IMG/VR virus record: IMGVR_UViG_3300023117_001979 | Source: an uncultured virus (IMG/VR IMGVR_UViG_3300023117_001979) | Lineage: Duplodnaviria; Heunggongvirae; Uroviricota; Caudoviricetes | Strand: one strand, 5' to 3' | DNA length: 64,000 nt | In this document: one piece after another, positions 30,112 through 64,000 of the stretch | Position numbering within the stretch: the first letter of the stretch is position 1 | Layout of the letters: each line of letters starts with the position of its first letter | Translations under genes and position numbers: made by a program | The notes under the pieces: generated by a model | What the model was told of the DNA's origin: nothing | The model's input: the letters and a program-made list of their open reading frames with translations, nothing else | Database searches by the model: none

Positions 30112-30112
30112 A

Positions 30113-34292: not shown

Positions 34293-34301
34293 ATAAGCGT
34301 G
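34293..34301 (+). promoter_or_regulatory. ATAAGCGTG gene-start motif (first of about 27 ATAAG(C)GTG copies to 63946)
   Basis: Recurrent motif at gene starts in the right half of the window. Confidence 0.8.
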
Positions 34302-34526
34302 GACACTGGATTATTCAGGACCAATGTAGGTTTGACCTACTTCCGTCAAGCAAAGATGGAAAAACAACTTACAGACGAGCAGGTGCTTGAGCTGTACACA
34401 TCGATACTTCGTATCGAAGCCAACGCAATCCGCCAAATGGAAGAGATTGCTGGCACTGCCGACCAATGGCGGAAAGACCAGGCTGAGGCTAGTCATGCCT
34501 TGGCAAAACAACTCCGTGACCTCTAG
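34299..34526 (+). CDS. small coiled-coil hypothetical protein
   Basis: GTG start within the ATAAGCGTG motif. Confidence 0.6.
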   Translation: MDTGLFRTNVGLTYFRQAKMEKQLTDEQVLELYTSILRIEANAIRQMEEIAGTADQWRKDQAEASHALAKQLRDL

Positions 34527-34546
34527 TCGCGTGAATAAGTGTATCA

Positions 34547-36763
34547 GTGGAAGGTACTGTTGAGTACCGGAAGCAAAAGGTGAAAAAAATGAAAACCGAA
34601 ACGAAAACCGAAATGAAAACAACTTTGTTTGTTTTGGTCGCCCTGTTTCTGTCCATTGGCTTTGTGCTGATGGGCAGCTTGGGTGACTCAACAATCGAAG
34701 ACCGAACCGCTGACAACGACGAGCAAGTGCGTATCGTGAGTCCCCTCGCTATGCACTGGAGTCGATGGTCCGTCCGCAAGAAAGACGGAAACCAGCAAAA
34801 GAAGGAAGCATGGAGAACGGCCCGCTGCGGCCAATCCAAAACCCTTCTCCACTGGCGACAAGTCATGCTCCCAAGCAAGAACCGTCGCCGTGCTGGTACA
34901 GACCAACAGCTCAACGCTCAGCGTGTGCTGCGTCTTCAATCACCTTTCGATAGCGCTAAGAGGCTCGCTCAAGAGCTTCGTGTTGGCGTCATCGAAAACA
35001 ACGAAGGAATCCAGGAAGTTCTCAACCGAGAAGTCCGAGTGATTCTTGAGACAGAGACACGAGCAATTCGAGACCCGGCGATTCGCCTGGACTACCTGCT
35101 CCATGTCTTCACAACCTACGGGGCTGCGTTAGGTATGGTTTGCCGAGACAAAGGAGACCAAGAAACCCTGACGATTTTGCCTCACCACATCCGGAACGCC
35201 ATCACGAATGGCTGGCAGAACATGCCAAAAGCCGGTAATGCGGAACTGATTGTTAAGAAGTTCAAAAAGGGCCTGGTTACGCCAGGCCTTTACAGCTCTC
35301 TTTACTTGAGAAAGGGCACCCCAGCTCAAATTCTCATTGATAAGATGGTTGACGAACAACTTGACCACTACATTCAGAACAACTCCGTTTCCGAAGAAGA
35401 CCTTCGTGCGCAAGCAAATAAGGCTCTAAAGGAAATGGTTAGCATTCACACCAAGTTTATGAAAGGAGAAGTGGACATTAATTTGTTCCATGAATCCATT
35501 CCTGAGCAATTTAGTGCCCAAGTCTCGGCTTTCCGAGAGAAGGGTAACAACATGAATGCACTCAAAGAGGCAGGTATTGACAGTGAAAAACTTGCTCCGT
35601 ATGCGGAAGAGCTCAAAGCTCTTCAAGCGGAGTTTGTTACTTCATACCTGTCTTGGAAAAGGAGCTCAACCAAGAGCCGCGACGAGCACCACAAGGAGCT
35701 GCGCGCAACTCTTGAAGAGTCACATCTGAGCGAAATGCGTGAAAAGTACCATTCTTGGGAAATTCGCGTCACTCGCAAAGAAGGAAAGAAAGTCTATGTC
35801 ACCATGGAGTGGCATTTGACTCCCATGACACCAACCAAGTCAAGGGGCAAGAAAGGCGCTGAAGAGGTTGTTCCAAACAACCACATTGGTGCCCGATACC
35901 TTTTGGGTCCATCTAATGGAGTCAAAATGCCTCTCGATGTGAAAAGGGGTTATGTGCGCGGTGCAAGCAAGATTGAGAAGCACGGCGGACACCCTTACAC
36001 TGGTGACACCACATCCATGCAACTGATTCGCGCATCTTCCCACAAGGGTGAAGATGGTTACTTCGGGGTGCTTAAAAACCTCCCTCGTAACAAAGTGTTT
36101 CAGATTCAAGCACGGCGTGAAAACTTCAAACAGCTTTACACTATGATGAATGTTGTACTGGGCGCATGCCCGTTCAACCCTTCATGGAAACTTGCTGGCT
36201 TGTATTCAAACCCGAAGCTCGTTGAATCAAACGGGCAAGCGTTTTCTCCTAACCTCACCTCGTTTGAAGTGGGTACGAAGGACAAAAAATCGGGCAAGAA
36301 ATCAGGCCGAAAGAAGCTTGGACCAAATGCAAAGAAGAACCGTAACGCGGTTCGGAAGGCAGCCGAGATTCTTGACCAGCAAGATGAGCTCAATATGGCA
36401 GAAGAGGGATTAATCGACCTTTATCGACCCAACACAGACCTTGCCGAAATTGAAGCTAACCACAACAAGGAATTGCTTCGACTCTGGGAACTCCTTTACA
36501 AGGAAACTGTTACCAAGTTGAGGACACGACTGAAAGCCCAAGGCCTAACCGTCCGCGGCAAGAAAGACGAACTTGTTAAGCGTTTGATGGATGAGTTTGA
36601 GAAGGAACACCACCGTAACCAAGCTCAACGCTGGCTCGACGAAATGGACGCAAAGCACGGTGTCATAATCGAAGACGAAAATGATGATAGCAACGACGAC
36701 AACAACGACGACAGCATCATCTATGACGACGACGATGTGTGGCCTGACCGCTCCGACAACTGA
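34547..36763 (+). CDS. large basic protein with hydrophobic N-terminus and C-terminal SAP domain (start probably ATG 34589)
   Basis: TVTKLRTRLKAQGLTVRGKKDELVKRL is a SAP motif; AGGTGA RBS at 34578; N-terminal TLFVLVALFLSIGFVLM. Confidence 0.75.
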   Translation: MEGTVEYRKQKVKKMKTETKTEMKTTLFVLVALFLSIGFVLMGSLGDSTIEDRTADNDEQVRIVSPLAMHWSRWSVRKKDGNQQKKEAWRTARCGQSKTLLHWRQVMLPSKNRRRAGTDQQLNAQRVLRLQSPFDSAKRLAQELRVGVIENNEGIQEVLNREVRVILETETRAIRDPAIRLDYLLHVFTTYGAALGMVCRDKGDQETLTILPHHIRNAITNGWQNMPKAGNAELIVKKFKKGLVTPGLYSSLYLRKGTPAQILIDKMVDEQLDHYIQNNSVSEEDLRAQANKALKEMVSIHTKFMKGEVDINLFHESIPEQFSAQVSAFREKGNNMNALKEAGIDSEKLAPYAEELKALQAEFVTSYLSWKRSSTKSRDEHHKELRATLEESHLSEMREKYHSWEIRVTRKEGKKVYVTMEWHLTPMTPTKSRGKKGAEEVVPNNHIGARYLLGPSNGVKMPLDVKRGYVRGASKIEKHGGHPYTGDTTSMQLIRASSHKGEDGYFGVLKNLPRNKVFQIQARRENFKQLYTMMNVVLGACPFNPSWKLAGLYSNPKLVESNGQAFSPNLTSFEVGTKDKKSGKKSGRKKLGPNAKKNRNAVRKAAEILDQQDELNMAEEGLIDLYRPNTDLAEIEANHNKELLRLWELLYKETVTKLRTRLKAQGLTVRGKKDELVKRLMDEFEKEHHRNQAQRWLDEMDAKHGVIIEDENDDSNDDNNDDSIIYDDDDVWPDRSDN

Positions 36764-36779
36764 GTTCTGAACGACACAA

Positions 36780-36857: not shown

Positions 36858-36963
36858 TCTCCAAGCCTGCCTAGGTCTTCGACCTGAGGCGAATACATTG
36901 ACCACTAGGTTTCCCCCCTTTGTTGGTCTTTGCTTGGCTTGTCATAAGTGAAATTGTATTAGC

Positions 36964-38721: not shown

Positions 38722-38785
38722 GCAAAAAGGGTGTGTTTAAGCTAAATCTCCATTTTCCCCTGGAGCTGCGGCTTGCCGATAAGTC

Positions 38786-39130
38786 ATGGTAAATGATAGC
38801 TTGATAGCGGAAACCAAACCGCTGAAAGAATTTCTGTTAGAGCAGATTAAAGCTAGTGTCCCTACCTACGAAAAAAGAATTCTTGGTTGGGGGGAACTAG
38901 CTACTGGTCTAGCAGTGGTTGTTAAGTTTCAACCACCAAAAAGCGAATTTAGCCTCAGTTCCATTACATCAGGAATTAGAGATGCTAGAGGTAGCTTGCG
39001 CAGTGAGCATACAATTCGAAGTTTGATAAAGTCGATGATGTTTTATCGTCTTATTGTTCAAACTAGCTATGCTAAGGGCGCTACTGCCTACCGTATTAAC
39101 TTTGAAATCCCAGGTGAGCTTTGTGCTTGA
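38786..39130 (+). CDS. putative winged-helix protein
   Basis: FSLSSI...SEHTIRSLIKSM...LIV...AYRIN. Confidence 0.55.
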   Translation: MVNDSLIAETKPLKEFLLEQIKASVPTYEKRILGWGELATGLAVVVKFQPPKSEFSLSSITSGIRDARGSLRSEHTIRSLIKSMMFYRLIVQTSYAKGATAYRINFEIPGELCA

Positions 39131-39858: not shown

Positions 39859-39905
39859 GAGTAATAAGTGAACCGTGAAACGAAGTCACAATTTGGAGGA
39901 ATTTT

Positions 39906-40787: not shown

Positions 40788-40845
40788 GGAAATAAGCGTG
40801 GTTGCTGTCTTGTGAGAATAGAACCGGGTACGCCCGCTCAAAAAG

Positions 40846-41416: not shown

Positions 41417-41677
41417 TTGAATAAGCGTGGTTGCTGTCTTGTGCGAAGAATGTCACAAGACATGATTTTGATTGAGAAAGGAAAACTGATTAGGTTCGTA
41501 AAGGACCTGGTCGAGAGGAACAGCCAATGCTGTATAGACCAAATGTGCTGTCAGCACTACATTACCCACAAAGAGGAAATGGAAGACAGGGAGTACTACA
41601 ATACTCTACTCGAAGACTTCGGCCTTTCGCTTGAAGACTTTGAGTTCGACGAGCGTGGCTACTTTATCGAAGACTGA
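41417..41677 (+). CDS. small hypothetical protein (start probably ATG 41450 or 41462)
   Basis: Follows a motif copy at 41421. Confidence 0.55.
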   Translation: MNKRGCCLVRRMSQDMILIEKGKLIRFVKDLVERNSQCCIDQMCCQHYITHKEEMEDREYYNTLLEDFGLSLEDFEFDERGYFIED

Positions 41678-41802
41678 CCTCAATCCTGGACCGAAGCTTG
41701 ACTGTGGTTTGCCCGCCCACCGTCAATATTTAGGGCACACGACAGGTGCCAGTCCCCGGTACCTGTCTTCTAAGTGAATAAGCGTGTATAAGGTGAAAAA
41801 CC

Positions 41803-42150: not shown

Positions 42151-42175
42151 GTAAATAAGCGTGTATTAGGAAACC

Positions 42176-43445: not shown

Positions 43446-43454
43446 GTGAAATAA

Positions 43455-43787
43455 GTGGACAGAATTTGTAAATTATGCCGCATTACATTTGACTTCAAAG
43501 GTGGAAGTCTTTTGTGCTCGCTCTCATGCCAAGATGTGTATGAGCGCTTGCGAAACAACCTCTACTCTAGAACGGTAGCACCTGCAAAAAGCACGGTTGA
43601 CCGCCTAGAAACACAGACTAGGATAGCAAAGGAAGAACACCGCACTGCGGTTAGTACCCATAACGCTTTTTGTCAGTCTGACAACCCGCTTAAGTTTTTG
43701 ATAGAAACACTTGATGACGACACTTATCGGGCTGTTGTAAAAGAAATAGGAGATGATGTTCTTGCCTCAACTGAAAATTCGGATTGA
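43455..43787 (+). CDS. zinc-finger + coiled-coil protein
   Basis: CKLC...CSLSC; GTG start in ATAAGTG. Confidence 0.65.
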   Translation: MDRICKLCRITFDFKGGSLLCSLSCQDVYERLRNNLYSRTVAPAKSTVDRLETQTRIAKEEHRTAVSTHNAFCQSDNPLKFLIETLDDDTYRAVVKEIGDDVLASTENSD

Positions 43788-43862
43788 AACTGAAGAATAT
43801 ATCTATGAAGAATACTTTGAAGCTTGAGCTTCGAGTTTCTTTAGTCCTATAAGGTAGGTAAA

Positions 43863-44261
43863 ATGTCATTTGATATGCAACTAACCGTTACTGCCACTGG
43901 GTCGGATGTGTTTACACTCCTTCGTGCCCTTAATTTGGCAGGGCTGGAGCACCTCGTTGAGGAAGCCCCAGCTAAAGAAATTGTCGAGGTTTCTAACTTT
44001 GACAAATCTGATGGAATTGACTTGGATATGCTTCCAGGTACAGTTTCTTTTTCAAAGTCTCCTAAAAGGAAGAAGCGAAAGCGTCGTGCTCCGCTTACTG
44101 ACATTCAGAAGGCTAAAATCGAAGAGCTAGCACTGGCTAACAGTGCCGCAAAGATTGCGAAATGCCTCGATATTCCCTACAACACCGTTTGGGCGTTTGC
44201 GAGAGCAAACGATATTCAATTTGGTGTTAAAGAAAAAGGCGGAAGACCGCCTAAAAACTAA
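43863..44261 (+). CDS. C-terminal helix-turn-helix protein
   Basis: SAAKIAKCLDIPYNTVWAF; GGRPPK. Confidence 0.65.
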   Translation: MSFDMQLTVTATGSDVFTLLRALNLAGLEHLVEEAPAKEIVEVSNFDKSDGIDLDMLPGTVSFSKSPKRKKRKRRAPLTDIQKAKIEELALANSAAKIAKCLDIPYNTVWAFARANDIQFGVKEKGGRPPKN

Positions 44262-44294
44262 CTGCTTTCCTTAGTTTCTAGGGTAAGTATAAGC

Positions 44295-44624
44295 GTGGAT
44301 AAACAACCTAACACGACCCTTGCGGAGCTAGAAGAGCTTTGCACTGAATGGAATAGCCGTTCAGAAAAACCCTCAGCGGAGTACTTAACTTGGCTCCCTG
44401 AATTTCATGAAACAGTCGTAGAGGCTAGAGGAGGCTTGTTTGCTCTCTTCTTTGCTTACTGCGATTTAGATGAAGACAATGACCCGTCTAACGGAGTATA
44501 TCGTTGTCTTTATCCTCTCCTCCCGATAGGAAGCGGAGGCGTTGCTCTTATTACAAGGAACCCTGAAACCTTGGAGCACGAAGTTGAGAAGTTTTTGGCC
44601 CAAATACGCCATCAGCTCAGCTAA
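44295..44624 (+). CDS. hypothetical protein
   Basis: GTG start in ATAAGCGTG. Confidence 0.65.
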   Translation: MDKQPNTTLAELEELCTEWNSRSEKPSAEYLTWLPEFHETVVEARGGLFALFFAYCDLDEDNDPSNGVYRCLYPLLPIGSGGVALITRNPETLEHEVEKFLAQIRHQLS

Positions 44625-44632
44625 AAATAAGC

Positions 44633-45379
44633 GTGGAACAATTTACAAGCGACACGACCCTGGAGTATTTCTTAGAAAACAAGGAGAAGTTCATTCTCCC
44701 TGTTGATGAGACTCCGACGGACGAGCAAGTACTCAGTCTGTTAAACAACGCAGCCGTTACAATGAATTTTGAAAACGGTGACATTGATGGGATTGGATTT
44801 GATATTGACTCCCTGAAATTTATGCAAAACAACCCTCACCACATGGAGGGTCTACTCGTTAACCACATTGCCCTGATGCTTTACCGCCTCAGGTTCTTTG
44901 CTGACGAGCTAACTCCTCAAGAGTATGAAATCCTTGAGCGAGCCGTGTTTTGGAGCGACATTGGTAAGCAGGCAACTGCAAAACCAAAGAAACTGGAAGA
45001 CGGGACTGAAATCACGACTGCATACGGTCATGCTAAGAAGTCCTCAGAAATTCTCAGGTCCGCCCAAGGCCCTATATACCCAGCTATTGACTACTGGTGG
45101 TTCAAGCCTGTTAATTGGCTGGTGTGTGAGCACATGAATGCTCACAACCTAGAAAAGAACAAGGAAAAAACGGTTATACCTGATTTCCTTGTGCCTCAAA
45201 TCGAGGGACTAAAGCCCTGGGAATTCCCGGAGTGGGAGTACCTCGTTATACCCCACACTGCGGGTAAAGGATTCAACAAGCAAAGTTATGCTTGGATTAA
45301 CCGCAATCACAAGCTACTCCGTATTAAGGGTAAGCTAGACGAAGACGGTCGTATTTCCGACCTTTCTTTTAGTCTGTGA
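44633..45379 (+). CDS. HD-domain-like phosphohydrolase (degenerate HD: SD)
   Basis: HHMEG.L.NH, FWSDIGK, AYGHA..S, EHM. Confidence 0.6.
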   Translation: MEQFTSDTTLEYFLENKEKFILPVDETPTDEQVLSLLNNAAVTMNFENGDIDGIGFDIDSLKFMQNNPHHMEGLLVNHIALMLYRLRFFADELTPQEYEILERAVFWSDIGKQATAKPKKLEDGTEITTAYGHAKKSSEILRSAQGPIYPAIDYWWFKPVNWLVCEHMNAHNLEKNKEKTVIPDFLVPQIEGLKPWEFPEWEYLVIPHTAGKGFNKQSYAWINRNHKLLRIKGKLDEDGRISDLSFSL

Positions 45380-45394
45380 TATATAAGTGTGAAA

Positions 45395-45425
45395 GTAGTA
45401 CTACTTTCCCAAGCGCTACAATATG
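45395..45425 (+). promoter_or_regulatory. bipartite element copy 3
   Basis: GTAGTACTAC tttcccaa GCGCTACAATATG. Confidence 0.8.
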
Positions 45426-45427
45426 AG

Positions 45428-45920
45428 CCAGGGAGTGCATACTGCTCAGTATGTCCCCGTGCATTTATGCATATGGCCTGAGTAACGCTAGTGAAACATT
45501 AGTGATTAGTGATAAGTGAATAGGATAGAACAACTTGGACCGTGGCGGTAAACTGTCACCCATTCAAGTTATCCTTGAAATTGCCGCCTTTGCGAACCCC
45601 GATGCATTGGCGAAAGAGTAGGGCATTAGTGAATCAGGTTCTCAACCTGTGAAACTAATGAATTTCGAGACAAGTAAAATACGCTTTCCGAAGCGGTTTT
45701 GCCTGTTTTAAGGACTTGAAGTAACCACGACTCTAGCCGAGTTGACTCCGGGTTACTTCTCGTAGGCTCTCCTGCCCTAACGGGTAGAGAGATGGAGAAA
45801 TTTCAGCAAATAGCGACCTTGTTGCAACGAGTTAGCTGTTTGTACTGTGAAAACACTCTAATTTGGGCTTCACAGCCGATTTTCGAGTGTAAAACATGAA
45901 ATTAGCGTGGTGAACCAGAA
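45428..45920 (+). ncRNA. putative ~0.5 kb structured RNA 2a
   Basis: No ORF in the track; serial hairpins between element copies 3 and 4. Confidence 0.6.
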
Positions 45921-45928
45921 ATGTAGTA

Positions 45929-45959
45929 GTAGTACTACTTTGCTGGGCGCTACAACATG
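45929..45959 (+). promoter_or_regulatory. bipartite element copy 4
   Basis: GTAGTACTAC tttgctgg GCGCTACAACATG. Confidence 0.8.
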
Positions 45960-53165: not shown

Positions 53166-53178
53166 ACTGATTGTATAA

Positions 53179-53589
53179 GTGGACCAACAAATGGAAAACC
53201 TATTGTCTTGGTTTGAAGAAACCAAGGAAGAGCAGAAGGTCATCGAGGCCCGAAGAAAAGCTCTTGAAAAACAAATTTTAGACCTTGCTAAGGAAAAAGG
53301 CATTTGCGGTGTAGTCCCATTTGACTATGCTGGCCGATATTTTGAAGCAAGCCTGAATATTGACAGAATACGAACCAAACTTCCAAGCAAAAAGGAAGTT
53401 ATTGAGCAATTCCGTAAAATGCTGCCTGAAGGTAAGCAAACTGCAGAAGAGGCTCAAAAGTTATACGATTCACTTACAAGTGAGGCTAGTATGACTGATT
53501 CAGTTACTATCAAAGCAGTTGACCCTCCTAAGGAAGTCATCGAAGCTAAAGTAACACAATTACAAGAAGAATTGAACGCTGGTGAGTAA
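53179..53589 (+). CDS. coiled-coil hypothetical protein
   Basis: GTG start in ATAAGTG. Confidence 0.7.
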   Translation: MDQQMENLLSWFEETKEEQKVIEARRKALEKQILDLAKEKGICGVVPFDYAGRYFEASLNIDRIRTKLPSKKEVIEQFRKMLPEGKQTAEEAQKLYDSLTSEASMTDSVTIKAVDPPKEVIEAKVTQLQEELNAGE

Positions 53590-53830: not shown

Positions 53831-54163
53831 TTGAGTAGCAAAAGAAAGCAAAGTAAATCAACTACATGCTCCTGGGGCGATATAGTGCTTACTACTAAAC
53901 AACTAGAATTTGCCAAACGGCAAACACTGAAAGAGCTCAAATCTTTGAATCTTTTTGTTAAGAACGGTGTAAACTTACACTCTACTGGCTCAGCAGAAGA
54001 AAAAAATGCTGATACGGAGTTAGTAAGGACAGCACTGCAAAGTATTGAAAACATGGATATAACTCAGTCTAGTGTAGCCATCTTAATTTCTGCTTTACAC
54101 CGCTTAGGTGTGGAAGCAAAGCTAGATGCTATCTTTGACTTAGAAGATTTGACTCCTGTATAA
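53831..54163 (+). CDS. hypothetical protein
   Basis: 110-aa ORF. Confidence 0.6.
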   Translation: MSSKRKQSKSTTCSWGDIVLTTKQLEFAKRQTLKELKSLNLFVKNGVNLHSTGSAEEKNADTELVRTALQSIENMDITQSSVAILISALHRLGVEAKLDAIFDLEDLTPV

Positions 54164-54322
54164 GTGCGGAAAGATACACAACCACACAAAATTCGCAAAG
54201 ATTATGCGGCTAGGCTTGAAGCCTGGCGAACAAAACAAACGCAGCTAGCAGACTACAATAAAGAAATGTCTCGTGCTAAACAGCGTACTCTTACAGATTT
54301 TTTCCCTGAACCTGAAGAGTGA
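54164..54322 (+). CDS. 52-aa protein with C-terminal PIP box (not in ORF track)
   Basis: GTG of ATAAGTG opens MRKDTQPHKIRKDYAARLEAWRTKQTQLADYNKEMSRAKQRTLTDFFPEPEE and exactly fills the intergenic gap. Confidence 0.7.
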   Translation: MRKDTQPHKIRKDYAARLEAWRTKQTQLADYNKEMSRAKQRTLTDFFPEPEE

Positions 54323-54325
54323 TAA

Positions 54326-55018
54326 GTGGCCAAAATTAAAATGGACCCGATTACTGGTAATATTACCCATATCGATGGAGTACAATTACTGGTTCCAATA
54401 TCAATGATAGATTGGACAAAGGCGACTCAGACTTATACTTCTTCATGTATTGAATACATAGAAGAAAGCTACAAAGCACAAGAAAAATGGAACAGTGCTA
54501 TTGGTGATTCTGAGATACTTAGTCTAGTCAAAAAGCATGTTGGAAAAGAAATTCTTGAAAGATTACAAGAAGAAAAGGGCTTTAGCTTGGTTATCGTCAG
54601 ACCTACTGAAAAGTGGGAAGAGCCAGGTTATGAAGAGCCTCAAGCAGAAGGATTGGTCAATTTAAACGACCTTAGACGAGTTGAGATAATTTGTATCGCA
54701 ACTGACCTTCTAAAAACTAAAGTACGCCGTCAAAAAACTAGCATAAACAATGCTACTAAACGGCGTCAACTTGCTATTTCTGTTGAAGAAATACAAGCAG
54801 AATGCAGAAAACAGTTGAGTTTCCCAACGAAAACTGTCTCTAGAGTCAAGGGCGTTAAGGGTTCTGAAGAACCTCATGACACTGATAATATTGATGAATT
54901 TTATCTAGAGAGCATTCCCGATATTCTTATTCAGGAAGGATGGAAACGGTATACAACTGAAAACTCCTTCGTACCCGAAGTAAACAATCACCCTTTTTGG
55001 GGGTCTTTGGATGAGTAA
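54326..55018 (+). CDS. hypothetical protein
   Basis: GTG start in ATAAGTG. Confidence 0.7.
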   Translation: MAKIKMDPITGNITHIDGVQLLVPISMIDWTKATQTYTSSCIEYIEESYKAQEKWNSAIGDSEILSLVKKHVGKEILERLQEEKGFSLVIVRPTEKWEEPGYEEPQAEGLVNLNDLRRVEIICIATDLLKTKVRRQKTSINNATKRRQLAISVEEIQAECRKQLSFPTKTVSRVKGVKGSEEPHDTDNIDEFYLESIPDILIQEGWKRYTTENSFVPEVNNHPFWGSLDE

Positions 55019-55433: not shown

Positions 55434-55440
55434 GGAATAA

Positions 55441-55665
55441 GTGTTGATGACAATAATTCAACTCATTGTGTTTACCAGTATTGCTCTTGGCTTACAGCAC
55501 CTGTTGTACAAATATCAGGTGCTAGGCACATACACTAGCTGGTATCACCGCATCAAGCACCGAGGTGCTGGATGGGAATATTGGAGGAACCTGGTTATCC
55601 TATGGATAGCATTGGTACTCTCTACTGAAATTACCTACATCATAGGGTTGAGGCTTTATGGTTAA
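55441..55665 (+). CDS. small membrane protein
   Basis: Two TM segments; GTG start in ATAAGTG. Confidence 0.65.
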   Translation: MLMTIIQLIVFTSIALGLQHLLYKYQVLGTYTSWYHRIKHRGAGWEYWRNLVILWIALVLSTEITYIIGLRLYG

Positions 55666-56910: not shown

Positions 56911-56919
56911 AGGCTATAA

Positions 56920-57636
56920 GTGTCACCATGGAATATTGTTGATAACGATTTGGAGATTCTAAGACATGAGGATTGCCTCGGTGCTCTTGGTTTCTTCGAG
57001 TTCCTCCTAAGTGAGGGACTAAATGAGAACGATGTAATACCAAGTAATCATCGTGAAAACTTCTATCAAGTTGGTAGGGGTGATAGAGTACCATTTTTGG
57101 TAGTGAGCAACAACCTAAGCAAAACTGTTGCCCCCGAAGTTATTCGAGGTTTTGATAACCTCTTTCAAGAAGGGGTAAATCTAACAGGAGCTATGCTTAC
57201 TTCTGATGATACTCACAAAGAGCTCAAGAGAAAATTTGAGCAACGGGAGTTCCAGCCTGGTCAAGAAATGATTGAAAAGGGACTCCTAGTAGAGTGCATT
57301 TTTTGGTATAGGGCGCGTCAACTAAGGACTCGTCGACCAAACTTGAAGCACACTGAGATTTTCGCCACTGTAAATGGTGAAATGGAAATTCTCAAAGAAG
57401 ATATGAAGAATTTCATTGATTTTACAATTCAAACATCAATGATGAGCTTCGTTAATTATCTCGAATCGCATGGCTATGAAGGAACTGATGCTAATGCGAT
57501 TAAGGTCACTATTGTAACTCTTCATTCTCAAGCAGGCGTGATTGTTCACCCTGAAGAAGATGCAGAAATGCTTCGTGAAAACGAAAGAAAGGCTGCCAAG
57601 AAGAAGAAGACTTACTTTGACCCCTCATTCATGTGA
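56920..57636 (+). CDS. hypothetical protein
   Basis: GTG start in ATAAGTG. Confidence 0.7.
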   Translation: MSPWNIVDNDLEILRHEDCLGALGFFEFLLSEGLNENDVIPSNHRENFYQVGRGDRVPFLVVSNNLSKTVAPEVIRGFDNLFQEGVNLTGAMLTSDDTHKELKRKFEQREFQPGQEMIEKGLLVECIFWYRARQLRTRRPNLKHTEIFATVNGEMEILKEDMKNFIDFTIQTSMMSFVNYLESHGYEGTDANAIKVTIVTLHSQAGVIVHPEEDAEMLRENERKAAKKKKTYFDPSFM

Positions 57637-57643
57637 GGTATAA

Positions 57644-58435
57644 GTGGGACTAGAAATTAACCTACAATTTACTGCAAAATCCGTGGCGGAGCTTAGAGAA
57701 CAGCTGACAGCTGCTTTGAGTGAGCTCAACGGAAGCGCAGTGGTGGAAACACCAAACAAGGCTACGAAAACCGAGAGGCCTAGTGCTGAGACTCCTAAAA
57801 AGGAAAAGAAGCCTAAAAGGCCTAAGAAAACGGTAAGGCGACCTAAAGCGCCAAAGGCTAGCTTAGAATGTAAAAGCTGCAAAGCAACGAGCACCCCTCA
57901 ATGGCGCCGTAAAACGGCTCCTGAAGGGCCTCTTTGTAATGCATGTCACATGAAGCTATACAAAGCTGAAAGAGCGGCCAAAAATAGCCCAAAAGAGAGT
58001 AGTGCAGAACGGTCTAGGCGGATTCGCCAAGAAAAGATTGGGTCTGCAGCTGCCTCAAAAAAGAAAAACAAACCTAAGGTAGAGAAGCTAGAGTTTGAAC
58101 CTGCTGAAAAAATCGAAGCGGATATGTCCACTGAAGCATTTTACTTGTGGGCCCAGTCATACTTGCCAGGAATGGTGATGCGTGACAAAACCTTCCTTGT
58201 TGCTTCTAAGGTCATTGAGACCTGGTTTACTACCCTAAGGCCACAGTCTGAATATGACAAGTGGTGTCTTAAAAATTTACAAACATTTACTGATGAAACT
58301 CGTAAGATGTTTGAAGTTTACCAAAAGGTACACCCTACCATTTTGATGATTCAAGATGCCGGGGACAATGTTGTACTTATGGTGAATAACCCGTCGGCCC
58401 TGACTTTTTCAAAGTTAGAAGGCCTACTGGAGTGA
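57644..58435 (+). CDS. GATA-type zinc-finger protein
   Basis: CKSC-KATSTPQWRRKTAPEGPL-CNAC (CX2CX18CX2C with TPxWR and LCNAC), flanked by Lys-rich segments. Confidence 0.85.
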   Translation: MGLEINLQFTAKSVAELREQLTAALSELNGSAVVETPNKATKTERPSAETPKKEKKPKRPKKTVRRPKAPKASLECKSCKATSTPQWRRKTAPEGPLCNACHMKLYKAERAAKNSPKESSAERSRRIRQEKIGSAAASKKKNKPKVEKLEFEPAEKIEADMSTEAFYLWAQSYLPGMVMRDKTFLVASKVIETWFTTLRPQSEYDKWCLKNLQTFTDETRKMFEVYQKVHPTILMIQDAGDNVVLMVNNPSALTFSKLEGLLE

Positions 58436-58439
58436 TTTT

Positions 58440-58787
58440 ATGACTGAAGAAGAGGAAATCGAAGTTTATTTCCCTAAAGGTGAACACTTAGGTGTTCACA
58501 TAGAATCCCCTGGAGCAGCCCTTTTGATGGTTACTCCTCTAGAGGGTGAGCGTTTCAGTCAAAGATTCGTAGTGTTGCTCCATTTTGGCGAAAACACATA
58601 CAAGCTTGTACTTTCATGGTCCCCTTCCCGCGCAGGGGAGGAACGCATTCCATGGGGGACTTTAGATGGGAAGGAAATCGACCCAACTAAGCACCCACTA
58701 TTTGGAACGAAAAATGAACAAGCTGGTTTATATCACAAAACTCTTCCACCGGGCTGTTATGTAGTCCGAGAAGAAATCAAGGTATGA
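58440..58787 (+). CDS. hypothetical protein
   Basis: GGAGTGA RBS. Confidence 0.65.
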   Translation: MTEEEEIEVYFPKGEHLGVHIESPGAALLMVTPLEGERFSQRFVVLLHFGENTYKLVLSWSPSRAGEERIPWGTLDGKEIDPTKHPLFGTKNEQAGLYHKTLPPGCYVVREEIKV

Positions 58788-58794
58788 CCAATAA

Positions 58795-58992
58795 GTGAGT
58801 AACGAAAGTACTTTACAAACTAGTCTGCTAGAGGCTTCAAACGAAAACAATCGTCAATTGAAGCGAATTGCAGATAGCTTGGAAGAACTCCTTTCAATGA
58901 TAAAGGGCGTTCAACCAGCTGAACTTGCGAAAAAGGCAAAGGAGCACAAAAAAGCTCAATCAAATCTGAAAAGGAGGCGAAATAATGAGTGA
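58795..58992 (+). CDS. small coiled-coil protein
   Basis: GTG start in ATAAGTG; LKRIADSLEEL. Confidence 0.65.
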   Translation: MSNESTLQTSLLEASNENNRQLKRIADSLEELLSMIKGVQPAELAKKAKEHKKAQSNLKRRRNNE

Positions 58993-60295
58993 CGAATTAT
59001 TACAAATGGCCCAAAGTTTGGGTTGTTCACCTACATTCGTTGAATTTGAAATGCTCCCGGTTACCTATTCGCAAATTGTACTGGTGGCGGGTCTGATTAT
59101 TACTGACTCTCACCAACAAACTGGACCTAATTATGATGCCAACCAGCGTACAAGGTTTGACCTTTGTACTGAAGTAGGTGATAATGGTCTTGCGATTATC
59201 TTCAACAACCATAACGGTGGTACTACTGGAGAAATCGTTTTCGACGCGCCAAAGTTTAGGCGTTCAAGTCGACACATAATTAATGCTCAAATTGACATGT
59301 CGCCAGGAGACTTTAGGCCTATGGTTCGTAACCGAAGGGCCACTTTATCTATTGGTGACATGGGCTTGATTATTAGCAGTACCGATGACAATGAAATGCT
59401 ACAAAAATACGGTCAACGAGCGGTTCGACGCTATGGTTATCGTAATTACAACAATCGTAGTCACTTTACTAGTCTAGGATTTAATGTAAACTGCAACCAA
59501 GGAATTCAAATTCAATATTCTTGGAACAAAAATGAGCATGTTTATGGCTGGTCAAATAATACAGGTCACGCACAAACTACGGTTATTCCGTTCTTTGGAA
59601 CAGAAAAGCCGACTAGAATTGAGCCTGTATTTGAAGCCAAATTCCCTTATGACACATTTAAAAAAATGTTGAACAGTTCGGGAAGAGCCAAAGATAGTGG
59701 TGGAGCTCTTTATTGGAGCTACAACCCTAAAACAAAGAAAATGTACACTGTTGGCGCATATGCTAACGGTGAAATTTCAAAAGAAGGTCGTACATACAAT
59801 ACTTCAGCTTGGGTACATAACAGTGTAACTGAGCTAATTGCAGGGACAATTCCCTACCGGCCTTTTGGTGAAGCAATTGTAAACCGATACAAAACAGCTA
59901 CCCATGCTGGATTTGGCATGGATGCACATGGTCGGCAGTACATTTGTATTTACTACCCATGGGGTCATATTCGATATAACCATATTACTTTTTCACATGG
60001 TGTAATCGAAGATGAGTCTGTGAGTGATATTTCGGGGCCAAAGGTCTCGTTAGAAAAGAATGCACCTGCGTTCTTTGAAAACTACGATTTATCATTTGAG
60101 TACTCGCCTTATACCGCATCTGAGGAATTATTTCTCAACAAGTGGTACGCAGTATTCAACGAATACCAAGAAGAGCAACTTTCGCGGCCTAAACTGCCGA
60201 AAAAAGGTGAAATTCTTCAATGGTATATTTGTTTTTGTCAGAATGGAGATGTTACTGATGAGGACGCACTGCTAGCTCAGAAAATTTTGAGCTGA
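58985..60295 (+). CDS. hypothetical protein (436 aa)
   Basis: AGGAGG RBS; long ORF. Confidence 0.75.
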   Translation: MSDELLQMAQSLGCSPTFVEFEMLPVTYSQIVLVAGLIITDSHQQTGPNYDANQRTRFDLCTEVGDNGLAIIFNNHNGGTTGEIVFDAPKFRRSSRHIINAQIDMSPGDFRPMVRNRRATLSIGDMGLIISSTDDNEMLQKYGQRAVRRYGYRNYNNRSHFTSLGFNVNCNQGIQIQYSWNKNEHVYGWSNNTGHAQTTVIPFFGTEKPTRIEPVFEAKFPYDTFKKMLNSSGRAKDSGGALYWSYNPKTKKMYTVGAYANGEISKEGRTYNTSAWVHNSVTELIAGTIPYRPFGEAIVNRYKTATHAGFGMDAHGRQYICIYYPWGHIRYNHITFSHGVIEDESVSDISGPKVSLEKNAPAFFENYDLSFEYSPYTASEELFLNKWYAVFNEYQEEQLSRPKLPKKGEILQWYICFCQNGDVTDEDALLAQKILS

Positions 60296-60302
60296 GCTAT
60301 AA

Positions 60303-60707
60303 GTGGCTGAAAAATTGCTAAAAATTGGATGGAGGCATTCTGATGAGTTATGGAAAAATATTTCCGACGAGTCAAGGCCTGCAATCCGTGAGTTTGTTGC
60401 TGTTATAGCAAATATCAAACCACTAAGAACAAGCGAAGATATTGAGGAGTTACTTGCAAAAGAGCTCCCTGATTTTTTTGACCAACGATTTAAACAGCTA
60501 ACTGCTCGTACTACACACCCATTTTGGAGTGGGAACGGGGAGTTTAGTACTGTGACCAACCGCATCCTTTACCTGGGCCTTATCAATGAAAATATTGACA
60601 AGGAGATAGGAATTTTCAACATCATTATGCTACAAGACATTGTGTCTGCGGCTTTGGTGCGATATAACGAACACATTATGCGGATGGATTTGGATGTCAC
60701 TGGATAG
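60303..60707 (+). CDS. hypothetical protein
   Basis: GTG start in ATAAGTG. Confidence 0.7.
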   Translation: MAEKLLKIGWRHSDELWKNISDESRPAIREFVAVIANIKPLRTSEDIEELLAKELPDFFDQRFKQLTARTTHPFWSGNGEFSTVTNRILYLGLINENIDKEIGIFNIIMLQDIVSAALVRYNEHIMRMDLDVTG

Positions 60708-61664: not shown

Positions 61665-61672
61665 GCCAATAA

Positions 61673-62152
61673 GTGTTACCTCGTATCACAAACCATATTA
61701 CCCGTTTGTGGGGCCACAGGAAAAATGTCACTGATGACAGTAATCCTGGGCAAATGAAGAGTGTTGAAGTTAGTGAAGTCAAAATCACTGAACAAACGCT
61801 CGCTAACTTGAAGGAAGCAGTAAATCGAGCTGAAGAACGAATTGCTGCTTGTCGAAAGCGCTTCGGAAAAGAAGCACTAGAGGACATGGACCGTCGCTAT
61901 GCTGAACGGAAAAATCCTCTCCCAAAGGAAGAGCAAGATGCACTATCTAAGGCACTTCCTAGGCTGCAATTGTGGCCTAGTAACCGACAAGGTGAACATC
62001 AATTGAAGATTTTTGCTTTTGAGGTAAATGACATGGACCCTGCAACTGAACCTAGTAAGCCTATTCTTGACGCTACTAAAAAATCAGTTGAAAGTAACCT
62101 ACCTGACGAAAGGAAAGGTGGCTTCGACGGTCTAGGTTCACTCTTTGGGTGA
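61673..62152 (+). CDS. hypothetical protein
   Basis: GTG start in ATAAGTG. Confidence 0.65.
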   Translation: MLPRITNHITRLWGHRKNVTDDSNPGQMKSVEVSEVKITEQTLANLKEAVNRAEERIAACRKRFGKEALEDMDRRYAERKNPLPKEEQDALSKALPRLQLWPSNRQGEHQLKIFAFEVNDMDPATEPSKPILDATKKSVESNLPDERKGGFDGLGSLFG

Positions 62153-62160
62153 ACATATAA

Positions 62161-63930
62161 GTGGAAGAATTTGATATTTTTCTTAACTACCCTAACTTGT
62201 TTCAGAGCAATGTGAGGCCTAGCAACTGTGTTATTGGAACTATTCCAGTGACTCGTATGGCCGCTATGCTTGGACAAGAAAGGAGCGAAAGCGAAATAGT
62301 TGCAGCCCCCGTTGAAGAAGATAGTTACTATCTTTCTTGGGGTTCTGCCGCAGATGGACAACACCGATGGCAAAACCGTGGCTCAAAAGCCTGTGTAAGA
62401 ACCTTAGGTCCCATTAAAAGGTTAGAAAATGATAGTTACCAATTTAAGGTATTAACCCAATTGGGAATAACTAAGGCAAGTGACTCTGGCTACTATTATG
62501 GTAGTCACAATAACAAAAATGCGTTTGGCGATATAGTCTGCCGAGACCGAATTAACCAAATATGGCTTGATTGCGTCCCTGGACTAGAAGATGCTATGAA
62601 AGAATTTGTAAGAAATGCTCACACACGAAGAGAGAGACCACCTTTGGCAGGTTCAACTCCGGGCTCTATTACAATTCATAATAACGGTGAAGATACTTGT
62701 AGGGTTGCTATTACTATCACTTCTGAGCAAGCAGCTATTTTGAGTCAAAGGTTGACTCAAGAATATACTTCGCTAAAAGATGAAAAAATGAGTGAATACA
62801 CATTAATTACTCATGAAAGGCTAGGAATGAATTCGGGTAAAATCCCTTATCGTTACAACAGGCCTGAACAATATAGGAATGAATATTTTCGTAGTGAGTC
62901 CTATGACCGTATGAACATTAAAACGCTCATAGTGAAACAAGATGGAAAGAAGCGCAAAGCTGGGCATTCTGAATCGCTCGGTATTATTGGGCTTTCTCAC
63001 GGCGAAAGAAAACAAAATTTTCCTATTGACCTATACTACAATGAAGAGCAAGAAGTAAGTCTTGAAGCTGTGTTATCATTTAAGCAGTATTCCATTGTAG
63101 TGTCTGTTGACAGAACCGGAAGAACCCAGATTTCGTCTACACGAAACATGGTTTTTCTGCCATATGTTAGCGGACTCGTGCTTGTAGCAAAGCCGAAAAA
63201 AATAACCCCTGGTGCTACTTTTCAGAGTGAGCTTCTTACTAGAGTCCTTGACCAAACTAAGAAGCGACAAATCAAGGGTGGATATAGAGGACCTTATCAA
63301 GGTCTATCTAAACTAACATACGGAGAAGAGACTTTGTTTCAAGTACGCTTTGCAAGTGGACTTAAAGCAATTGCCAGCGGGGAACCAATTAAGAAATTTA
63401 AGCTGGATATTCCCCCTCGACTTCCTCTCAGTATGGAAGACTATGTCGAAATCGAAAGGCCAATGACCAATATCAAACCGATTGAAGTTGGGCATTTGAA
63501 CCTATACCGTATTTCTGAATCGCCTAGAAAGCTGGTTACAGGAGAAATCCTTAGTGACTTACAGCTACCTAGTATGCCTGATTTTATGCTAGCTATTGAC
63601 ACCGACATTCGTATCGAAAGTAACGACGAATATGTTGGTGGTAGCGAGTGCTCAGGCGATTGTCAACATGAGAATGTCAACATGCCTATTCCTCCTGGCC
63701 TTTATGTGGTCAAAAAGAAAGAGCGATGTGTAATTTCTCACGACCCTGGGCGACCAGAGTACAATGTTGGATTTGGAAGCATTTGTAATGATGGTATTAC
63801 GATTCGACGCCTACTATCACAACTAAACATTCACTATGACCAATTTAGAGGGAACATGGTTGGGGACGGCACAAAGGTTCAGGAAACTGACCTGTCTGTT
63901 TCTGCTGGTTCTTTGCTTGGTCGTTTCTAG
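62161..63930 (+). CDS. hypothetical protein (589 aa)
   Basis: GTG start in ATAAGTG; long ORF. Confidence 0.75.
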   Translation: MEEFDIFLNYPNLFQSNVRPSNCVIGTIPVTRMAAMLGQERSESEIVAAPVEEDSYYLSWGSAADGQHRWQNRGSKACVRTLGPIKRLENDSYQFKVLTQLGITKASDSGYYYGSHNNKNAFGDIVCRDRINQIWLDCVPGLEDAMKEFVRNAHTRRERPPLAGSTPGSITIHNNGEDTCRVAITITSEQAAILSQRLTQEYTSLKDEKMSEYTLITHERLGMNSGKIPYRYNRPEQYRNEYFRSESYDRMNIKTLIVKQDGKKRKAGHSESLGIIGLSHGERKQNFPIDLYYNEEQEVSLEAVLSFKQYSIVVSVDRTGRTQISSTRNMVFLPYVSGLVLVAKPKKITPGATFQSELLTRVLDQTKKRQIKGGYRGPYQGLSKLTYGEETLFQVRFASGLKAIASGEPIKKFKLDIPPRLPLSMEDYVEIERPMTNIKPIEVGHLNLYRISESPRKLVTGEILSDLQLPSMPDFMLAIDTDIRIESNDEYVGGSECSGDCQHENVNMPIPPGLYVVKKKERCVISHDPGRPEYNVGFGSICNDGITIRRLLSQLNIHYDQFRGNMVGDGTKVQETDLSVSAGSLLGRF

Positions 63931-63943
63931 TTGAGATATATAA

Positions 63944-64000
63944 GTGACTGATGAAAATTCAGAACAAATTGATGCTAACTCCCAGGAGGGAGTAGTATTC
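63944..64000 (+). CDS. 5' end of next gene (partial, MTDENSEQIDANSQEGVVF...)
   Basis: GTG of ATAAGTG opens a frame that runs off the window. Confidence 0.55.
   Translation, partial: MTDENSEQIDANSQEGVVF

Follow-up and report, generated by a model that had tools for sequence, protein, structure and literature searches.

The question raised by this locus is what a word as short as ATAAG(C)GTG does ahead of so many genes, and what reads it. The 64,000-nt stretch of DNA analyzed here (the window) is a large mobile element of the "magrovirus group D" type from Marine Group II archaea (PMC5434244), whose genes include those for a thermosome, PolB, a resolvase, a fused archaeal RNA polymerase (RNAP) A'+A'' subunit and RpoH. 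ATAAGTG has 23 matches in the window, 20 on the + strand and 3 on the - strand (4537, 18189 and 43727), against a mean of 9.21 and a largest value of 17 in 100 dinucleotide-preserving shuffles, none of which reached 23. ATAAGCGTG has seven matches, all on the + strand and 0 on the - strand, where 0.44 were expected and 0 of 100 shuffles reached seven; ATAAGGTG is not enriched in the window (one match, at 41788, versus 1.99 expected). A signal of 5-7 nt is, taken alone, weakly specific, which counts against an initiator reading. The preliminary description had estimated about 27 copies on the + strand, nearly all intergenic, and had noticed none at gene starts in the first 32 kb; each of these statements holds. 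The 27 + strand copies (ATAAGTG plus ATAAGCGTG) are confined to 34293-63940, a scan of the + strand of 1-34292 returned 0, no ATAAGTG in the window lies within a predicted ORF, and on the + strand of 32-64 kb 34 of 47 ATAAG words fall outside predicted + ORFs. The motif is strongly biased to the + strand and clustered at 34.3-64 kb rather than evenly spread, and the ATAAG observation is confirmed as real.

Fourteen of the 16 GTGs originally listed as starts open ORFs of 52-589 aa, all on the + strand. With ATAAGCGTG these lie at 34293-34301 (GTG 34299, 75 aa; 10 nt after a hairpin and T8), 44289-44297 (GTG 44295, 109 aa) and 44627-44635 (GTG 44633, 248 aa); with ATAAGTG, at 43451-43457 (GTG 43455, 110 aa, in-frame ATG absent), 53175-53181 (GTG 53179, 136 aa; ATAAG kept in orthologues), 54160-54166 (GTG 54164, 52 aa; the TAA is the stop of the preceding ORF), 54322-54328 (GTG 54326, 230 aa; relatives L011-L013 have ATAAGCATG), 55437-55443 (GTG 55441, 74 aa), 56916-56922 (GTG 56920, 238 aa), 57640-57646 (GTG 57644, a 263-aa GATA-finger protein), 58791-58797 (GTG 58795, 65 aa), 60299-60305 (GTG 60303, 134 aa), 61669-61675 (GTG 61673, 159 aa) and 62157-62163 (GTG 62161, 589 aa). 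The frame of GTG 63944 (ATAAGTG at 63940-63946) is open to the window end, with 19 codons seen, and the start at GTG 52261 (52257-52263) is uncertain because only 43 codons are open and they overlap another frame. In the long ORFs the first in-frame ATG after the motif GTG is codon 91 (GTG 56920, where the N-terminus M-S-(T)-P-W is conserved), 102 or 108, or there is none. Across 19 orthologue pairs, codons 2-8 after the motif GTG differ 31, 20 and 56 times at codon positions 1, 2 and 3, and codons 2-6 of the GTG 61673 ORF differ from those of L002 only synonymously. The in-frame ORFs and the third-position excess establish, for about half of the copies, that the motif-embedded GTG is a real, translated start codon.

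Other + strand copies stand 12-54 nt upstream of the next ORF, as had been described: ATAAGTG at 34535-34541 (12 nt before GTG 34547 of a 738-aa ORF with a SAP domain), 36944-36950 (20 nt before ATG 36964, 585 aa) and 39864-39870 (42 nt before ATG 39906, 293 aa with its own GGAGG word), and ATAAGCGTG at 40792-40800 (54 nt before ATG 40846), 42155-42163 (21 nt before ATG 42176, 196 aa) and 41778-41795, the last followed by ATAAGGTG, the two words lying 25 and 15 nt before ATG 41803 (115 aa). TATTAG occurs in the leaders at 36944 and 42155. The ATAAGCGTG at 41421-41429, where the 23 nt from the motif start of 40792 recur, had been placed in the same group, but no clear gene follows it; it may head a short RNA or a leader. 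Variants on the + strand are ATAAG-TC-ATG at 38779-38788 (ATG 38786, 114 aa), ATAAGG at 43849-43865 (14 nt before ATG 43863, 132 aa) and ATAAATG at 50257-50263, whose ATG 50261 starts a 637-aa AAA+ ATPase.

Four copies to which the preliminary description had assigned no place (45383, 45512, 47070 and 52201) all lie in ORF-poor, highly transcribed stretches of the + strand. ATAAGTG at 45383-45389, after a terminator-like stem at 45347-45362, heads an ORF-free transcribed stretch; that at 45512-45518 heads a non-coding RNA (fragment start 45534) conserved in L002, L009 and contig C21 of the archaeal metagenome-assembled genome (MAG) discussed below; and that at 47070-47076 heads a conserved non-coding sequence also found in those three. 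RNA from the ORF-poor region 45383-47604 is very abundant, contig depth being 124-10,808 versus 6-144 over genes. The small unit at 52201-52256, consisting of ATAAGTG, hairpins and T10, is conserved in all six of the sequences compared. The motif thus also heads several abundant non-coding RNAs, where its GTG is not a start codon, so that the role first ascribed to the GTG stands at coding heads and fails at these RNAs.

Comparison with relatives separates the word from its start codon. Ten sources totalling 169,165 bases contain 107 + strand and 5 - strand copies of ATAAGTG, which ranks first of 210 composition-matched permutations (permutation mean 15.8, next best 53). Of the 245 ATAAG words on the + strand of nine related sequence sets, 87 lie 2-13 nt upstream of an ORF head, versus 1 of 110 on the - strand and 49 of 408 for the best unrelated permutation in the same test. 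Orthologous genes keep the motif in relatives whose AAA-ATPases are as little as 45% identical, and motif-less genes remain motif-less in their orthologues. At orthologous junctions the flanks diverge and ATAAG is invariant, as in the 6-sequence alignment of the 60299 junction, while the start is either the GTG that overlaps it or an ATG placed 1-3 nt downstream, distant relatives having ATAAG(C)ATG in place of ATAAGTG. The unit had been described as ATAAG(C)GTG; its GTG is used as a start here, but the constrained core, judged from these alignments, is ATAAG. In the main class the start codon lies 0-8 nt downstream of the motif; in a minor class of seven sites an ATG follows ATAAG by 18-21 nt.

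Shine-Dalgarno (SD)-like words precede 9 of 67 motif-headed ORFs, equal to the random rate (263 of 2000), and 60 of 161 other ORF heads; an example of the latter is the internal, motif-less gene at 58985-60295 (+), which has GGAGG upstream and, in a low-confidence model, resembles PCNA. The layout is that of a classic archaeal operon, with motif-headed genes devoid of SD-like words and internal genes carrying them. According to the review PMC7531240, archaeal leaderless and leadered mRNAs both use AUG, GUG and UUG starts. A search upstream of the motif for a TATA/BRE-like box found none. Both copies noted to follow terminators closely do so: 34293 is preceded by the hairpin with T8 and 52257 by a stem (52228-52245) with T10. 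In the window and in all six of the relatives aligned, the motif lies 2-10 nt behind such terminators, so that a fresh start is required there. Most copies have just upstream a hairpin lacking a T-run, and the 40-mers upstream of the motif fold with a mean MFE of -8.7 kcal/mol versus -6.15 for random ones (Mann-Whitney p = 2e-5).

The stretch is present in 24 metatranscriptome runs, four of which (X1-X4) served, in the form of assembled contigs, to locate RNA boundaries; such contigs are no proof of a start. Among the contig pieces listed (32 of 107), 17 of 31 starts fall at -5 to +40 from a motif (random mean 1.3) and 22 of 32 ends at -40 to +8 (random mean 1.5), the maximum in 20,000 random placements being 8 coincidences; among the same pieces, none of 13 motif-less gene starts coincides with a contig break. 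In these assemblies RNA boundaries coincide with the motif, in support of the earlier interpretation. Contigs start at +6 to +24 of motif copies, and at the AAA+ ATPase variant they begin at 50254 and 50263. Others stop within 0-8 nt of the motif, either short of it or inside it (47075, 54168, 57635, 58786, 61666/61669, 63935/63942), and some span copies (X2 over 44289-45512, X4 over 56916-58791, X1 over 55437 and 56916). At four of five distinct places, adapter-flanked fragments begin at a constant +22/+23 from AT(A/T)AG, namely at 45534 and 57662 (both X1, X3), 62180 (X3) and, after an ATTAG, 47584 (X1, X4); the fifth, 46011, lies at +15. These sharp 5' ends, 18-19 nt inside ORFs and away from the motif, speak against an initiator. 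The offset may stem from library making, if the RNA 5' end is lost in that step; a literature search on such loss found no support.

The possible reader is encoded on the - strand, where, as had been claimed, the element has RNAP genes: a 1668-aa fused archaeal-type A'+A'' subunit (25105-30111) with an intact catalytic NADYDGD and, in the same operon, an RpoH/Rpb5-like small subunit (30551-30817). The operon is conserved in G001, a 1.2-Mb archaeal MAG that bins a relative. Neither the window nor the G001 element contigs contain an RpoB-like subunit, TBP, TFB or a sigma-like factor. G001 has 138 matches in all, fewer than the 197 of the reversed-word control, and they are concentrated on its two element contigs (of the 100 listed, C21 has 30 on + and 1 on -, C15 has 10 on - and 1 on +); within 315,300 bases of the remaining contigs ATAAG is near 8 of 219 ORF heads. 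It is the element that uses the motif, not the archaeal MAG.

Four other explanations have to be weighed. In the main rival reading, unlikely in our judgment but deserving attention, an endoribonuclease of the element or host would cut long polycistronic transcripts at AUAAG or beside it, to produce monocistronic RNAs with 5' ends abutting GUG or AUG and freed non-coding RNAs, the upstream hairpins shielding the new 3' ends. RNA contigs that both end and start at motif copies, the low-energy hairpins devoid of T-runs, and the strict sense-strand bias together with the missing promoter box, which fit an RNA-level signal, all agree with it, as do antisense copies that are not clearly depleted (5 versus a mean of 9.8, with 21% of permutations as low or lower); since upstream contigs end 0-8 nt from the motif with no T-run, cleavage fits as well as termination and restart. 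Little RNA should arrive, however, behind strong T8-T10 terminators; the AAA mRNA ends at 52169-52175, 26-32 nt short of the next motif; Pfam gave no sequence-specific RNase candidate in the window; and a promoter for the postulated precursor was not found. Viruses with their own RNAP employ such short words as promoters, an analogy that also weighs against cleavage. A signal acting at the ribosome within polycistronic mRNA, for example in stop-restart or as a non-SD enhancer of initiation directly before GUG or AUG, would leave RNA ends undefined by ATAAG, and we give it little probability. In its favor, contigs do run across some copies, the start codons of the main class all lie 0-8 nt away, and an in-frame TAA precedes the GTG; this TAA is the previous gene's stop at 54160 and comes after that gene's TGA at 54322. 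Against it, the previous ORF mostly ends 3-10 nt earlier in another frame. The presence of the motif at non-coding RNA heads and 12-54 nt before other starts with their own SD, the contig breaks that, among the pieces listed, fall on motif copies and spare all 13 motif-less junctions, and the disuse of the word on host-like contigs count against it too.

Very improbable, in turn, is (T)ATAAG bound like a TATA element with transcription starting about 22 nt downstream, to which the adapter-flanked ends at +22/+23, the minor class of seven sites and the likeness of the word to a TATA box would correspond. Starting there would cost the ORFs their first six codons, yet codons 2-8 clearly code for protein and the start codon beside the motif is conserved; other contigs have their first base at +6 to +19, the fifth adapter-flanked end lies at +15, and the spacing is 6-7 bp below the canonical archaeal TATA-to-start distance. 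That the word has no function, being a by-product of TAA stops that adjoin GTG starts because the genome is compact, or of duplicated junctions that share an ancestor, is scarcely credible. TAA-containing words are mildly enriched before host-like starts (8 of 219 versus about 1.6 expected), but conservation (the invariant ATAAG between divergent flanks) and the RNA boundaries at the motif already contradict this reading; the motif also ranks first among the permutations and is present at non-coding units, and the previous ORFs mostly stop elsewhere.

The explanation we favor, with slightly better than an even chance, is that ATAAG is an initiator-type core promoter whose mRNAs have little or no leader, and that an element-modified polymerase probably reads it. 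We infer that the RNA boundary at the motif is a transcription start and that the element polymerase is its reader. The earlier interpretation of a minimal initiator for the element's RNAP, with GUG-initiated mRNAs, is partly supported, by the genuine GTG starts, RNA boundaries, element specificity and RNAP genes, and gives way where the core is ATAAG and the heads are non-coding. The start motifs of baculoviruses and poxviruses are analogous in function only; the polymerase of this element is of archaeal type. Under the initiator model, the core, present in this magrovirus-group-D-like lineage in the longer forms ATAAGTG and ATAAGCGTG, would set transcription going within or right at the motif, giving an RNA 5' end 0-6 nt before GUG or AUG, so that the first genes of transcription units would be translated leaderless or nearly so, the initiator's own GTG doubling as the start codon in this lineage, and later genes would depend on SD-like words. 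The hairpin just upstream, sometimes with a T-run, would end the preceding unit, and the identical word would start several abundant non-coding RNAs. Because there is no TATA/BRE-like box and the MAG does not use the word, its reader is most likely an element-specific RNAP form containing fused A'+A'' and RpoH, perhaps with an additional factor. Since the element carries its own RNA polymerase genes, ATAAGTG is probably its private transcription start signal.

The preliminary description of this DNA had reported about 27 + strand copies of ATAAG(C)GTG, nearly all intergenic, and had proposed that the motif be counted by strand and position against expectation. That count bears the description out. 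The window contains 23 matches to ATAAGTG, 20 on the + strand and 3 on the - strand, compared with a mean of 9.21 and a largest value of 17 in 100 shuffles, and 7 matches to the longer ATAAGCGTG, all on the + strand, where 0.44 were expected; the ATAAGGTG form is not enriched in the window (1 match vs 1.99 expected). All 27 + strand copies lie from 34293 to 63940 and none elsewhere in the window, in agreement with the earlier remark that the motif was not noticed at gene starts in the first 32 kb. On the + strand of the 32-64 kb region, 34 of the 47 occurrences of the core ATAAG fall outside predicted ORFs, and no predicted ORF there has an internal ATAAGTG. The motif map covers the window plus L001. 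One - strand ATAAGTG, at 18183-18189, is located ~90 nt ahead of a - strand ATG in the intergenic space from which 17735-18094 (-) and the resolvase gene diverge, and it may be authentic although it lies outside the main block. At 40792-40820 and 41421-41449, ATAAGCGTG is followed each time by the same 14 further letters, with 23 nt identical in all, which suggests duplication of a leader or small RNA.

Sixteen of the GTGs had been proposed as in-frame starts, and most of these stand: 14 begin ORFs of 52-589 aa, in which the first in-frame ATG often comes after 90-108 codons or is absent, and the frame of the GTG at 63944 is open as far as the window end. The GTG at 52261 has an opening of 43 codons only. 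Six motif copies have another start 12-54 nt downstream, and those at 41421, 45383, 45512, 47070 and 52201 have no gene behind them. The motif GTG is a start codon. A TAA precedes it in frame, and therefore nothing upstream is translatable in that frame; codons 2-8 of 19 orthologue pairs carry 31, 20 and 56 differences at codon positions 1, 2 and 3, respectively; codons 2-6 of gene 61673 differ only synonymously from those of the relative L002, and gene 56920 keeps M-S-(T)-P-W with a whole-codon indel. Shine-Dalgarno (SD)-like words are found ahead of 9 of the 67 motif-headed ORFs, 60 of 161 other ORF heads and 263 of 2000 random places, which places motif-headed ORFs at the random rate, and internal genes have SD-like GGAGG words ahead of them. 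The motif-headed genes thus lack an SD before the start codon, as archaeal leaderless messages do, and the arrangement of SD-less first genes, SD-led internal cistrons and an accepted GUG matches the leaderless-first-cistron layout of Sulfolobus and Haloferax in the available text of PMC7531240, where GUG is an accepted start on archaeal leaderless mRNAs.

Relatives were collected with an alignment of the AAA+ ATPase encoded at 50261-52174 (+). The 10 sources, 169,165 bases together, yielded 107 gene-strand and 5 opposite-strand copies of ATAAGTG, which ranks it 1 of 210 permutations (mean 15.8, next best 53). In nine sequence sets, 87 of the 245 gene-strand ATAAG copies are situated 2-13 nt ahead of an ORF head, compared with 1 of 110 copies on the other strand and 49 of 408 for the best unrelated permutation. 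Among 109 sites, GTG overlaps ATAAG in 64 and an ATG stands two bases on in 15. The most distant relatives, L011-L013 (GC 53%), have ATAAGCATG at orthologues of the ATAAGTG genes of the window, and another relative, L009, uses ATAAGATG once; word-less genes with GGAGG keep the same state in the relatives. At one junction aligned in six sequences ATAAG is invariant and the flanks have diverged, and the conserved unit is ATAAG. As a general second word ATTAG is not enriched in the window (62 + vs 68 -), and only individual copies look related. GATTAG or TATTAG is present 1-12 nt ahead of several ATG starts (612, 21041, 36957, 42164 and 50246 in the window), including those of motif-free early-region genes, and also within the leaders of ATAAG-N-ATG genes.

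A relative with 70% identity in the AAA+ ATPase and 71% in the RNA polymerase (RNAP) is binned in G001, a 1.2-Mb archaeal MAG that has its own separate RNAP operon. Among the 100 of its 138 motif matches that were listed, there is clustering on the two element contigs, with 30 + and 1 - on C21 and 10 - and 1 + on C15, and the genome total of 138 lies below the 197 of a reversed-word control. In 315,300 bases of the other contigs, ATAAG is near 8 of 219 long ORF heads. The motif block of C21 stops at ~30-33 kb, beyond which lie motif-free replication genes (Rad52-like, MCM, RusA), and the other flank of the block is the motif-free RNAP and PolB region. The motif-free genes on both flanks imply that the word is the signal of one ~40-kb unidirectional block and not of the whole element.

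The window spans 62009-126008 of a metagenome contig of 135,676 bp. It encodes a thermosome subunit (623-2173; 500 bits, cut-off 450), a serine resolvase (18216-19139), a family B DNA polymerase (PolB, 22394-25135), GmrSD, and an RNAP operon (25105-31537, -) that comprises an acidic protein (159 aa, long D/E tail), an RpoH/Rpb5-like subunit, RNase H and, adjoining the RpoH-like gene, a fused archaeal A'+A'' subunit of 1668 aa (25105-30111, -) with the catalytic triad as NADYDGD; the operon order is kept on C15. Magrovirus group D is defined by DNAP B, thermosome, resolvase and RNA polymerase A, its nature being left open, in the available text of Philosof et al. 2017 (PMC5434244), and the window, with all four genes and archaeal affinity, is of the group D type by gene content. 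The available text of Xu et al. 2023 (PMC10160649) reports group D as enriched in the cellular fraction and suggests a plasmid-like nature as possible. No RpoB-like subunit was found by Pfam among the scanned ORFs, nor for six chosen proteins at E up to 5; PF00562 matched in G001 only in the host operon on contig C1, and a 1130-aa ORF at 5532-8924 has no match in PDB sequences or the protein atlas. Since no RpoB-like gene was found, host subunits may complete the element polymerase to a hybrid enzyme. No initiation factor gene was found in the window ORFs and G001 element contigs searched. A phage DNA collection gave no nucleotide match to the window, and IMG/VR yielded no relative in scans that used two proteins singly or the AAA+ ATPase alignment as query.

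Several further genes are of note in their own right. The window begins inside a C-terminal Peptidase_G2 IMC autoproteolytic domain of tail-spike type (13-279; E = 3.2e-14), a domain typical of phage tail-spike or fibre proteins and thus a virion-type gene in a lineage reported without structural genes. A SAP domain at the C-terminus of a 738-aa protein (34547-36763; E = 6e-6) and a weak match to Arf-family GTPases (3280-4014; E = 4.7e-5) are eukaryote-flavoured domains in an archaeal element. Also eukaryote-type is the GATA zinc finger of the protein encoded at 57644-58435 (+; E = 1.2e-9 to GATA-3 and 1.4e-9 to GATA-1 chains), which L002 and L005 retain and L013 shows weakly; the orthologues in L009 and on C21 have a serine-recombinase 'Recombinase' domain instead, and a separate 131-aa GATA protein is encoded on G001 contig C15 (L165 7352-7744). 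A G precedes ATAAG in 2 of the 27 window copies, and L013 reads GATAAG in 19 of 22, as counted from the matches listed. The GATA-finger protein as universal reader of the motif is weakened by the rarity of this G in the window and by the absence of the finger in L009 and C21, and is a lead only.

The word has no upstream box. No position upstream exceeds 0.35 bits in the 27 window sites or 0.20 bits in the 109 aligned sites, no A/T-rich stretch is present near -26 in the latter (AT fraction 0.43-0.66 at -35..-20), and a scan for sigma-70-type promoters gave 38 against 33.1 expected, that is, no signal. The 40 nt upstream of the motif have a mean folding energy of -8.7 kcal/mol, compared with -6.15 for random 40-mers (p = 2e-5). 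The copies at 34293 and 52257 had been described as closely following terminators, and strong hairpins with T-runs are indeed located 2-10 nt upstream of both; a further hairpin with T-run precedes the copy at 45383. A conserved unit of ~55 nt (52201-52256, +), a candidate small RNA, separates the AAA+ ATPase gene from the gene that follows. It consists of ATAAGTG, one or two hairpins and T8-T10, with the motif of the following gene directly behind it. The unit is kept in all six sequences aligned, with compensatory changes in two pairs, and in its C21 counterpart the downstream word is ATTAGTG.

The 52-62 kb stretch is contained in 24 metatranscriptome runs, and RNA boundaries were compared in four runs, as assembled contigs only, for 32 listed of 107 pieces. 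Relative to a motif, 17 of 31 listed piece starts fall in the interval -5..+40 and 22 of 32 listed ends in -40..+8, whereas 20,000 random placements averaged 1.3 and 1.5 and reached 8 at most; 13 motif-less gene starts have no contig boundary among the same pieces. Some contigs span motif copies. Stretches that no listed contig covers, such as 52176-52275 in run X4, were given no weight of their own. Contig breaks thus cluster at the motif, although contigs cannot fix a 5' end to within the ~5 nt of the start codon that characterize a leaderless message. The piece starts near the motif range from +6 to +24, and loose, adapter-like letters, which we take to be adapters, mark piled-up fragment ends; their orientation gives the RNA sense as +. 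Adapter-flanked 5' ends occur in two runs each at 45534, 57662 and 47584, the last after ATTAG, and also at 62180; these four places are all at +22/+23 from the first A of AT(A/T)AG, and a fifth, at 46011, is at +15. The fixed offset from the word argues that the RNA ends are set by it. These ends fall 18-19 nt within coding sequence, perhaps because the outermost 5' nucleotides are lost during second-strand synthesis; a literature search on 5'-end loss in dUTP libraries found nothing.

Two transcribed stretches, 45383-47604 and 48300-50200, have no long ORFs. Contig depth at 45.3-47.6 kb is 124-10,808, compared with 6-144 over genes, from which it follows that very abundant non-coding RNAs start at ATAAG words, and the RNAs of both stretches are probably abundant element-encoded non-coding RNAs. 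Several of their units are headed by ATAAG or ATTAG (45383, 45512, 46604, 47070 and 48345; 45996 and 47562) and are conserved in L002, L009 and C21. Rfam has no family in the window, the abundant RNAs included, and no tRNAs were found in it.

On balance, the word is best explained as a core promoter of the initiator type, from which leaderless or near-leaderless RNAs would arise, because the signal is element-specific, sets RNA 5' boundaries by SD-less starts, follows terminators, is without TATA/BRE and heads non-coding RNAs. The proposal in the preliminary description of an initiator for the element's RNAP, yielding leaderless GUG mRNAs, agrees with the lack of SD words, the GTG starts and the RNA boundaries at the word; it needs amending in that the conserved core is ATAAG, and that non-coding RNAs too are headed by the word. 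The likeliest reader would be a polymerase containing the A'+A'' and RpoH of the element.

The main rival, a real if considerably less probable possibility, is an RNA cleavage site, with leaderless mRNAs made by processing; contig ends that abut the word and hairpins without T-runs are as this would predict, while the hairpins with T-runs ahead of 34293, 52257 and 45383 are of the terminator type that an initiator would follow. A strand-depletion test on antisense copies, designed to tell a DNA-level from an RNA-level signal, was not significant. A pure translation signal, to which the overlap with the start codon would be suited, fits less well with a word that also heads non-coding RNAs, and is improbable. 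Also improbable is a TATA-like box with starts at +22: four of the five adapter-flanked ends lie at about that distance, and it too fits the evidence less well than an initiator.

Late and very late promoters of baculoviruses offer one parallel: they have the core (A/G/T)TAAG, need no obligatory upstream box and stand immediately ahead of genes that form one temporal or functional block. The likeness extends to a five-letter TAAG core, here at 87 ORF heads, the missing upstream box, the single gene block and a DNA element with its own multisubunit-type RNA polymerase; on initiation inside TAAG, only contigs speak (starts at +6 to +24, adapter-flanked ends at +22/+23). Baculoviruses, however, infect insects, use a four-subunit LEF-4/8/9/P47 polymerase and make capped mRNAs, usually with leaders, whose AUG is not fused to the core, whereas here the start codon overlaps or abuts the core and the polymerase genes are archaeal A'+A'' and RpoH; with polymerase and thermosome archaeal, the comparison is an analogy only. 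The poxvirus late promoter, with its initiator TAAAT(G), 5' poly(A) heads, upstream T-rich region and eukaryotic host, is similar in that the initiator overlaps the start codon (here at 64 of 109 sites), which would fuse promoter, RNA start and translation start in one word, and its letters recur in the variant ATAAATG at 50257. It differs in that here there is no upstream element, A/T-rich core included, and GUG is the main start codon; 5' poly(A) was absent from the contig loose ends, a weak test. By analogy, then, the system would work like the baculovirus TAAG and poxvirus TAAAT(G) late initiators while belonging to neither, its polymerase and host being archaeal.

Canonical archaeal promoters have BRE/TATA ~26 nt upstream, and none is present in the 27 window or 109 aligned sites. 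Nor is there a partner box at fixed spacing with a downstream start, as in a sigma-type two-box promoter, the start codon lying 0-3 nt past ATAAG. Late promoters of phage T4 resemble the present case as minimal single-box promoters, a -10-type word activated by the sliding clamp, and the motif block encodes the AAA+ ATPase and a protein with a low-confidence PCNA-like model; T4 differs in using host RNAP with gp55/gp33 and a start downstream of the box, and a clamp link here would be a lead only. We know of no archaeal initiator that is a conserved word at the start itself. Searches for an archaeal ATAAG promoter, MGII leaderless transcription starts and a Poseidoniales virus with RNAP and thermosome found nothing relevant, and the literature searched, as far as its text was available, holds no published description of this start word. 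In the available text of the magrovirus papers PMC5434244, PMC10160649 and PMC11706807 no transcription signals are described, the word 'promoter' occurring 0 times.

A more far-reaching interpretation can be advanced only tentatively: the word may belong to a private transcription programme of an archaeal virus or mobile element, in which its own fused A'+A'' and RpoH would take the place of their host counterparts and redirect the polymerase to a TATA-less initiator of 5-7 nt, ATAAGTG, whose last three letters are the start codon, so that promoter, RNA 5' end and translation start would be one word, with the same signal driving extremely abundant viral non-coding RNAs. To our knowledge, archaeal viruses are generally held to depend on host RNA polymerase and host-type TATA/BRE promoters. 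If true, the start word would open to direct testing the idea that a virus-encoded catalytic subunit alters the promoter specificity of an archaeal polymerase. It would also define transcription units, a set of abundant non-coding RNAs and the true GTG starts of genes, often overlooked by gene callers. As a simple marker it serves to find and orient related contigs in marine metagenomes. For the group D magroviruses, a globally distributed lineage whose nature is left open in the available text of PMC5434244 and PMC10160649, a conserved element-specific start word would, if true, be the first handle on the expression organisation of such an element.
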